From Escherichia coli (GTDB lineage: Bacteria > Pseudomonadota > Gammaproteobacteria > Enterobacterales > Enterobacteriaceae): DNA of 64,000 nt. A program made the position numbers and the translations under genes. Below the pieces are notes generated by a model. That model did no database searches. It was not told the origin of the DNA and was given only the letters and a program-made list of their open reading frames with translations. Shown one piece after another: positions 56,250 to 56,648 of the stretch (position 1 is the first letter of the stretch; each line of letters begins with the position of its first letter). Location: the NCBI RefSeq assembly GCF_016903815.1, contig NZ_CP069973.1, one strand, 5' to 3'.

Positions 56250-56260
56250 ATGCCCTCGTC

Positions 56261-56378
56261 GCATCAGGTAACCTTGCCGGTACCTGATGCGCTCCGAATT
56301 CTGTAAGTCGGATAAGGCGTTCACGCCGCATCCGACAGTCGAGCATCAATGCCTGATGCGCTTCTTATCAGGCCTACC
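56261..56378. repeat. REP/BIME cluster between ycfP and ndh
   Basis: Three REP-type palindromes (cgcatcaggtaacc...ggtacctgatgcg; gtcggataaggcgttcacgccgcatccgac; gcctgatgcgcttcttatcaggcctac). Confidence 0.7.
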
Positions 56379-56648
56379 GAACGCCCTCCATACACACCTC
56401 ACTCTATATCACTCTCACAAATTCGCTCAAATAATAAACAACAAACTCTGTTTTTTGATCTCACCCGGTAAAGTCGCCTATCTTTTCAGCAACAAAACTT
56501 GATTAACATCAATTTTGGTATGACCAATGCACCATTCATGTTATTCTCATTAGCGAAGAACATTTTCATTGCTGTAACCTGTTGTTAATTAAGAGCCATG
56601 TTAATAACCATTAATTAACAATTGGTTAATAAATTTAAGGGGGTCACG

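Follow-up and report, generated by a model that had tools for sequence, protein, structure and literature searches.

REP elements at four intergenic sites of an Escherichia coli chromosome segment, and how the messages upstream of them most likely end

The spacer between ycfP and ndh of Escherichia coli (positions 56250-56648 of the window, by which we mean the whole 64,000-nucleotide stretch of DNA analysed here) carries a series of palindromes, and further palindromes lie in three other spacers of the window. These raise two questions, namely whether the palindromes belong to the REP family, as a preliminary description of the sequence had proposed for all four sites, and what they do for the genes that they follow. 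We conclude with considerable confidence that the four sites are ordinary chromosomal REP elements organised in BIMEs, situated in the 3' UTRs of opgH, rluC/yceF, ycfP and ndh; how they act is argued below, where we propose that they most likely shape how the upstream messages end and decay. Gene coordinates were taken from the RefSeq annotation of E. coli strain 7/2 (NZ_CP023820.1, 1180112-1244111), which is 100% identical to the window over the 2.6 kb tested and whose coordinates for that interval agree with the window sequence. The gene names used in the preliminary description (opgH, rluC, yceF, ycfP, ndh and ycfJ) agree with this annotation, which makes every one of the four sites intergenic: three of them separate tandem genes, and the fourth a convergent pair.

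Identification of the units was based on three scans. An nhmmer profile, built solely from published or canonical REP consensus sequences and thus independent of the window, recovered seven units at E < 1e-3 (4.6e-8 to 9e-4), all inside the four claimed sites; the rest of the 64 kb gave no match with E < 0.1. The pattern GATAAG-N(2-16)-GCATC was matched seven times where 0.34 matches were expected, a count that no shuffle reached; six of these matches fall in the claimed sites and the seventh is a chance match in coding sequence at 55799. When the published Y consensus (Nunvar 2010, PMC2817692) was run without gaps (by Hamming distance) alongside the short Z consensus, five units came up, each 0-6 mismatches away from its consensus, and 50 dinucleotide shuffles yielded no match. 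The proposal of REP palindromes at four intergenic sites therefore survives a formal consensus scan at every site. The clusters at all four sites also fold much better than shuffled sequence (z -3.9 to -5.8), the internal AA/GC bulge is visible in the predicted folds of the Y and long Z units, base pairing is kept in the predicted fold of every REP unit, and the units are paired in inverse orientation. The K-12 RefSeq record that we examined carries no repeat features, REP325 included, and so gives no independent check on the annotation of REPs.

G+C-rich hairpins at gene ends might equally be Rho-independent terminators, or inverted repeats that arose by chance, and at one position the former idea has something to recommend it: the long Z unit after ndh occupies the place of the terminator in other genera and is followed by the pyrimidine-rich sequence AUUCCUUC. 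None of the units at sites 3 and 4 has a U-tract after it, the shuffles contained zero consensus matches, and the HMM E-values extend down to 5e-8. As a general reading of the palindromes, terminators or chance repeats are thereby refuted, and we consider it extremely improbable that the units are anything other than REPs. The features of the four sites are collected in Table 1, in which Z units are called short or long since the names Z1 and Z2 are used inconsistently between papers.

Table 1. Coordinates of REP units and associated features at the four intergenic sites of the window.
Site	Feature	Position	Strand	Details
1, opgH-yceK	Short Z REP	2488..2517	-	GTAGGCCTGATAAGCGTAGCGCATCAGGCA; 0 mismatches to consensus; HMM E 1.2e-5
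1, opgH-yceK	Linker between inverted REPs, 35 nt	2518..2552	.	BIME-1/RIP-type 'L' linker
1, opgH-yceK	IHF consensus in linker	2528-2540	-	AATCAACACATTG; pattern match
1, opgH-yceK	Y REP, GTAG head	2553..2587	+	3 mismatches; HMM E 1.2e-7
1, opgH-yceK	Canonical intrinsic terminator 5' of yceK	2604..2636	+	12-bp stem + U7; -18.2 kcal/mol, z -3.9
2, rluC-yceF	Y-like REP, degenerate head GTTG	35781..35815	+	6 mismatches; HMM E 4.6e-8
2, rluC-yceF	Perfect 11-bp palindrome	35828..35857	.	GCCGGATGCG...CGCATCCGGC; marginal REP match, HMM E 0.17
3, ycfP-ndh	Hairpin 1, 11-bp perfect stem	56260..56291	+	CGCATCAGGTA / TACCTGATGCG; -20.6 kcal/mol, z -6.3
3, ycfP-ndh	Y REP, mutated head	56303..56337	+	3 mismatches; HMM E 3.7e-7
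3, ycfP-ndh	Z REP, 28 nt, GTAG head	56350..56377	-	HMM E 9e-4
3, ycfP-ndh	C-rich, G-poor tract; candidate Rho utilisation site	56379..56458	+	25 C / 5 G
3, ycfP-ndh	ndh regulatory region and 5' UTR, not repeat	56460..56648	+	Many invariant columns; conserved in aligned Enterobacteriaceae
4, ndh-ycfJ	Y REP without GTAG head (CCAG)	57965..57999	-	5 mismatches; HMM E 1e-6
4, ndh-ycfJ	Long Z REP, GTAG head	58016..58053	+	HMM E 7.9e-7
4, ndh-ycfJ	C-rich, G-poor tract 5' of ycfJ; candidate Rho utilisation site	58054..58133	+	27 C / 10 G

Site 3 separates ycfP, which ends at 56249 (stop codon 56247-56249), from ndh (56649-57953). The preliminary description was headed with the whole of this spacer and placed three REP units in it (56261..56378), and both points need to be narrowed. 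Repeat sequence occupies 56260-56378 only, the remainder being the C-rich tract and the ndh regulatory region, and the number of REPs is two, a Y and a Z. What had been counted as the third is hairpin 1. Its arms resemble two REP 'tails', and yet they score only E 0.9 and 8.8 against the REP profile, and the hairpin occurs at one place per genome in 5425 E. coli genomes (at least 99% identical in 4605 of them). On these grounds we reject hairpin 1 as a REP and regard it as a locus-specific, non-canonical structure. The Y and Z units that follow lie tail-to-tail across a 12-nt linker. The head of the Y unit reads GTAA in the window, GTGG in K-12 and GTAG in the divergent Escherichia lineage E69. 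The 28-nt Z unit was also considered as a native short Z and rejected as such: E. albertii, E69 and some 30% of E. coli still have the long form, which by comparison of sequences makes the window's unit a long Z shortened by a derived 8-nt deletion. The Rfam family naRNA4 aligns over its full length with 56306-56374 and scores 56.6 bits (E 7.5e-9), the gathering score being 59.5. Site 3 is a single Y-Z tail-to-tail pair, probably of the BIME-2/naRNA4 type, placed after a locus-specific hairpin.

The ndh portion of the spacer has features of its own. At 56499-56512 it contains TTGATTAACATCAA, a perfect FNR-type palindrome (TTGAT-N4-ATCAA) with half-sites that are invariant in 8/8 aligned Enterobacteriaceae. 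Expression of ndh is repressed anaerobically, with which such a palindrome agrees, and it is from this established regulation of ndh that we assume the palindrome to be a putative FNR site. Further downstream, an inverted repeat of 18 nt, AT-rich and 89% complementary, lies in the ndh 5' UTR (56575-56592 / 56611-56628). A K-12 Term-seq RNA 3' end 60 nt upstream of the ndh ORF (1166025; PMC7815308 supplementary file 3) maps to about 56589 in the window, within the leader repeat region 56575-56628, and may reflect premature termination or processing in the ndh leader.

At site 1 the REPs sit between the stop codon of opgH (also annotated mdoH, ending at 2478) and a genuine intrinsic terminator ahead of yceK, which starts at 2651. 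The site displays the BIME-1/RIP architecture, two inverted REPs and a linker with an IHF consensus (2528-2540, also written WATCAANNNNTTR), and the composite is multi-copy, with a median of 17 places per E. coli genome. Its Z unit is presumably of the Z1 type in the classical nomenclature. The Rfam 'sRNA' family ES036 (CssrF) also matches here, on the - strand at 2510-2552, with 45.7 bits against a gathering score of 37.6; this match amounts to the BIME-1/RIP linker plus the two GTAG heads, and the family looks REP-derived rather than representing a dedicated sRNA gene.

The architecture of site 1 invites a reading at the level of DNA, in which IHF (bound at the site 1 linker), DNA gyrase (at Y-Z pairs) or DNA polymerase I would act through these repeats on supercoiling or chromosome structure. 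The IHF consensus lies exactly in the linker between the two REPs, the composite belongs to a multi-copy family, and BIMEs are established binding sites for IHF, gyrase and Pol I according to the literature cited in PMC2817692. Set against this, the IHF pattern is not enriched across the window (4 matches versus 2.5 expected), so that its position alone counts and the match by itself is weak; the pattern scan of the window found no IHF motif at sites 2 to 4; and REP325 has been reported to have no role in nucleoid compaction and to make no REP-REP contacts (bioRxiv 10.64898/2026.03.23.713779). We therefore think a DNA-level role rather unlikely as the principal function of the sites, while noting that it is compatible with the RNA-level model developed below.

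Between rluC, which ends at 35752, and the convergent yceF, which ends at 35864, a REP cluster had been placed at 35784..35855. A Y-like unit is indeed present there (E 4.6e-8), and the part that does not hold is the second hairpin, a marginal match (E 0.17) that is REP-like but has neither the GATAAG bulge nor a GTAG head. Site 2 is thus one degenerate REP unit together with a REP-like palindrome. Site 4, between the ndh stop codon (57951-57953) and the start of ycfJ (58180), is a Y and long-Z pair, the long Z of which is destroyed by a 17-nt deletion in about 30% of E. coli, K-12 included.

Across the four sites, the GTAG head is present in four of the seven units (2517, 2553, 56377 and 58016) and replaced in three, by GTTG (35781), GTAA (56303) and CCAG (57999). 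The three units without it are decayed copies whose membership of the REP family is still clear. The E. coli REP transposase (TnpAREP) does not tolerate mutations of GTAG (PMC8266576), and because these units have lost the head, they are, judged by sequence, unlikely to be substrates of the enzyme at present. The suggestion that the REPs are targets of REP-associated transposases probably no longer holds for these three. A substrate of such an enzyme (TnpAREP/RAYT) would have both an intact GTAG and a REP hairpin and be cut at a flanking CT; the RAYT gene itself lies outside the window.

We next consider how these sites vary, using 5,426 complete E. coli genomes and counting a site as present at a coverage of at least 80%. 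Site 1 is found in 5,362 of the genomes, site 2 in 5,418, site 3 in 5,409 and site 4 in 5,382, i.e. in approximately 99% or more, in keeping with the description of these repeats as normal for E. coli. The median number of places matched in a genome is 4-17 for queries that include REPs, and hairpin 1 and the degenerate units of site 2 match a single place. A comparison of REP copy number among genomes had been suggested, and it revealed no variation in unit number at the four sites, which differ instead through small indel alleles. At ycfP-ndh, about 70% of alleles are window-like or K-12-like (the K-12 cluster is that of the window apart from three substitutions) and about 30%, strain 3R among them, have 8 extra nucleotides that make the long Z. 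A rare allele, in 3 of 60 sampled rows and represented by strain EcPNK004, is missing 69 nt exactly between 11-nt direct repeats (CCTGATGCGCT), and tandem amplification of the Y-Z pair was seen in none of the ycfP-ndh alleles. At rluC-yceF, two sampled alleles are shorter by about 11 nt (310 and 307 nt versus 321 and 318). The stem alleles are too alike to hold compensatory changes.

Several further observations concern the same population sample. Of the two shorter rluC-yceF alleles, one belongs to an O157:H7 strain and the other to a strain whose serotype is not stated, and 304 genomes fall in the 90-95% identity band for window positions 35660-35980. Two deeply divergent E. coli haplotypes occur at 56378-56440, directly 3' of the REP cluster: about 30% of genomes are 92-93% identical to the 351-nt ycfP-ndh query, versus about 98% for most others, and the differences are concentrated at 56378-56440. 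This fits the view of BIME-flanking regions as hotspots of polymorphism and recombination.

Beyond E. coli, 80 species-level loci around ycfP were compared. REP matches at the ycfP-ndh-ycfJ sites were confined to two of these, from E. albertii and the divergent 'E. coli' E69, in which the two spacers are 400-407 nt and 226 nt long. In 77 other loci (Citrobacter, Salmonella, Enterobacter, Klebsiella and others) the spacer between ycfP and ndh has 221-303 nt. Locus L090, from an uncultured enterobacterium, has a long ycfP-ndh spacer, in which neither scan nor inspection found a REP match. Hairpin 1, the Y unit and a long Z unit are all present in both E. albertii and E69, from which it follows that the ycfP-ndh cluster predates the split of the lineages. 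By sequence comparison, then, the clusters at ycfP-ndh and ndh-ycfJ go back to an ancestor shared by E. coli and E. albertii and have been inherited vertically since, decaying slowly through mutated GTAG heads and small deletions.

The other genera show what Escherichia has in place of these clusters. By a strict scan, 55 of the 80 loci have a hairpin with a T-run after ycfP, mostly 7-32 nt past the stop codon, and none of the 55 is from Escherichia. Two such outgroup terminators, both with a U7 tail, have folding energies of -14.2 and -16.9 kcal/mol. The E. coli C-rich tract at site 3 ends in a T-run (56451-56456) that aligns with the U-tract of these terminators; the aligned segment as a whole retains the T-run but folds at just -3.1 kcal/mol. 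After ndh, a terminator-like hairpin stands in other genera at the place of the Escherichia REP pair.

These comparisons bear on whether the REP units are simply selfish or neutral relics. Such an origin would accord with the loss, in three of seven units, of the GTAG head that is essential for TnpAREP (PMC8266576), with the loop deletions of 8 and 17 nt and the 69-nt deletion allele, and with the restriction of REP matches to two Escherichia among the 80 species loci. It accords less well with the retention of base pairing in every unit, with clusters that are older than the division between E. coli and E. albertii and still present in about 99% or more of E. coli, or with the high conservation of hairpin 1 noted above. 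Moreover, the ancestral ycfP terminator hairpin is gone, and because of this some element must now define the ycfP 3' end. That the units are no more than relics appears to us, on balance, a doubtful proposition.

How, then, might the messages end? Neither a consensus terminator scan nor a strict hairpin and U-tract scan found a credible intrinsic terminator after ycfP or ndh, the sole match being a weak 6-bp stem within the REP cluster, which does not exceed the yield of shuffled sequence. The consensus scan also missed the real terminator at 2604-2636, whose stem runs into A/T runs and which was confirmed by folding. The tracts following sites 3 and 4 rank at the 99.9th (56379-56458) and 99.8th (58054-58133) percentile of all 80-nt windows for excess of C over G, and no such skew is present after site 1, which has its own terminator. 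In K-12, DirectRNA-seq with bicyclomycin gave Rho region peaks at 1165914 (score 2.45, p 4e-6) and 1167599 (4.3, p 6e-8) (PMC7815308 supplementary file 2), which map to window positions 56478 and 58180; the scores derive from 800-nt windows, a resolution that assigns termination to the intergenic regions without fixing the nucleotide. In the curated Term-seq list no 3' end is entered at 1165700-1165899 or 1167400-1167599, and the missing REP-protected 3' end may be due to low expression.

A precedent is provided by REP325, which functions at once as a terminator that depends partly on Rho and as an mRNA stabiliser, and across the genome REPs are associated with upstream-biased expression (bioRxiv 10.64898/2026.03.23.713779, a preprint in which the genes considered here are not mentioned). 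Whether a REP stabilises its message depends on the context, and over the whole genome half-lives are no longer for mRNAs that end in REPs.

Taken together, the lack of U-tract terminators, the C-rich tracts, the K-12 Rho data and the REP325 precedent lead us to infer read-through, Rho-dependent termination and trimming as the best reading of these sites, with REP hairpins serving as barriers to 3' exonucleases. In this model, the REP units would be co-transcribed as 3' UTR. Because ycfP and ndh have no intrinsic terminator, transcription would run through the REPs into the C-rich, G-poor tracts, where Rho would terminate it; 3'-to-5' exonucleases would then trim the transcript back to the G+C-rich REP hairpins, which would guard the message upstream. 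The combined REP and C-rich module may in this way limit read-through into ndh and ycfJ, insulating the ndh and ycfJ promoters. At site 1, where the REPs precede a real terminator, they would be able only to modulate decay or to bind IHF. That GTAG heads decay, that 30% of strains carry the 17-nt deletion and that a 69-nt deletion occurs, if rarely, shows that intact units are not strictly required. The earlier suggestion that the palindromes act as mRNA stabilisers or terminators fits the anatomy described here, including hairpins whose stems begin 8-12 nt past four stop codons: the short Z stem 11 nt past that of opgH (2476-2478), hairpin 1 10 nt past that of ycfP, the site 4 Y stem, on the transcribed strand, 12 nt past that of ndh and, on the - strand, the site 2 palindrome 8 nt past that of yceF.

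The same spacing could alternatively affect translation, if a hairpin lying at most 15 nt beyond the stop codon holds up the ribosome at termination and so provokes tmRNA tagging and lower levels of OpgH, YcfP, Ndh and YceF. All four distances lie inside the 15-nt limit given by Liang, Rudd and Deutscher 2015 (summary in PMC12306157). The rluC stem, at 23-28 nt, is outside this range, and the ycfP hairpin is not a canonical REP. We judge an effect of this kind improbable, and retain Rho-dependent termination with REP-protected 3' ends as the preferred reading.

If that reading is extended to the evolutionary comparison, a more specific scenario can be offered tentatively, as one that may well be wrong. 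In an Escherichia ancestor, a block of about 165 nt (hairpin 1, the Y-Z REP pair and the C-rich tract) could have displaced the ycfP intrinsic terminator, switching 3'-end formation from Rho-independent to Rho-dependent and REP-protected, and the REP pair after ndh could likewise have replaced a terminator hairpin. Were this true, REP insertion would be a route for switching the terminator type of a gene.

The REP/BIME finding is real, ordinary and already known, a textbook repeat class fixed at these positions in E. coli, and it matters little beyond correct annotation. Its comparative value lies in two adjacent Escherichia genes at which REP modules occupy the place of ancestral intrinsic terminators. 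In addition, the natural deletion alleles (a rare one of 69 nt at ycfP-ndh and one of 17 nt, in about 30% of strains, at ndh-ycfJ) could provide ready tests of the effect of REPs on the expression of neighbouring genes, including the insulation of the ndh promoter from upstream read-through.

Two other kinds of element in the window deserve mention. Both IS200 copies are IS200C (left junctions 43056-43095 and 59950-59990, tnpA 43227-43685 and 60125-60583), and, as had been stated, neither lies in a REP: they follow the intrinsic terminators of fabF and bhsA, with no REP nearby in the scan. Each is inserted within a few bases past the terminator T-run (ggtccgcttgcgggccttttttcttg followed by tgcacag after fabF, ccccgcgacatgccgtgtcgcggggattttt followed by gtgcacag after bhsA). 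Their left ends are identical and each has a match to Rfam STnc490. This arrangement suggests that IS200C prefers post-terminator sites. Separately, positions 30118-30902 (- strand), between flgL and rne, encode a GNAT-family acetyltransferase and a DUF1778 protein, a pair that looks like a type II toxin-antitoxin system.

Finally, the four sites can be set beside known systems. Sites 3 and 4 are like Rho-dependent terminators that are trimmed to a stem-loop in having a stable hairpin, then an unstructured tract with more C than G, and in K-12 a bicyclomycin-sensitive region downstream; unlike those terminators, they are without an entry in the curated Term-seq list for a 3' end trimmed back to the REPs. 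With REP325/naRNA4 (Rfam RF02564), the BIME-2 array between yjdM and yjdN, site 3 shares a Y-Z pair that aligns over the full 77-position model and a location in the 3' UTR of tandem genes, and partial Rho dependence would be expected of it as well. It differs in comprising one pair, not six, in the unique hairpin before that pair, and in a score just below the Rfam threshold. Site 1 resembles BIME-1/RIP/RIB elements, with Z and Y units head-to-head, a 35-nt linker with an IHF consensus (a putative IHF site) and many copies per genome. More generally, while three of the seven units of the window have a mutated GTAG and the site 3 Z is a shortened long Z, the units conform to the E. coli REP or PU class (Y, Z1, Z2) and its BIMEs (Gilson, Bachellier, Hofnung; Nunvar 2010, PMC2817692; Corneloup 2021, PMC8266576), with which they share the consensus, the GTAG head in four of the seven, the imperfect GATAAG...CGCATC palindrome with its AA/GC bulge, the extragenic position in 3' UTRs and the pairing in inverse orientation.
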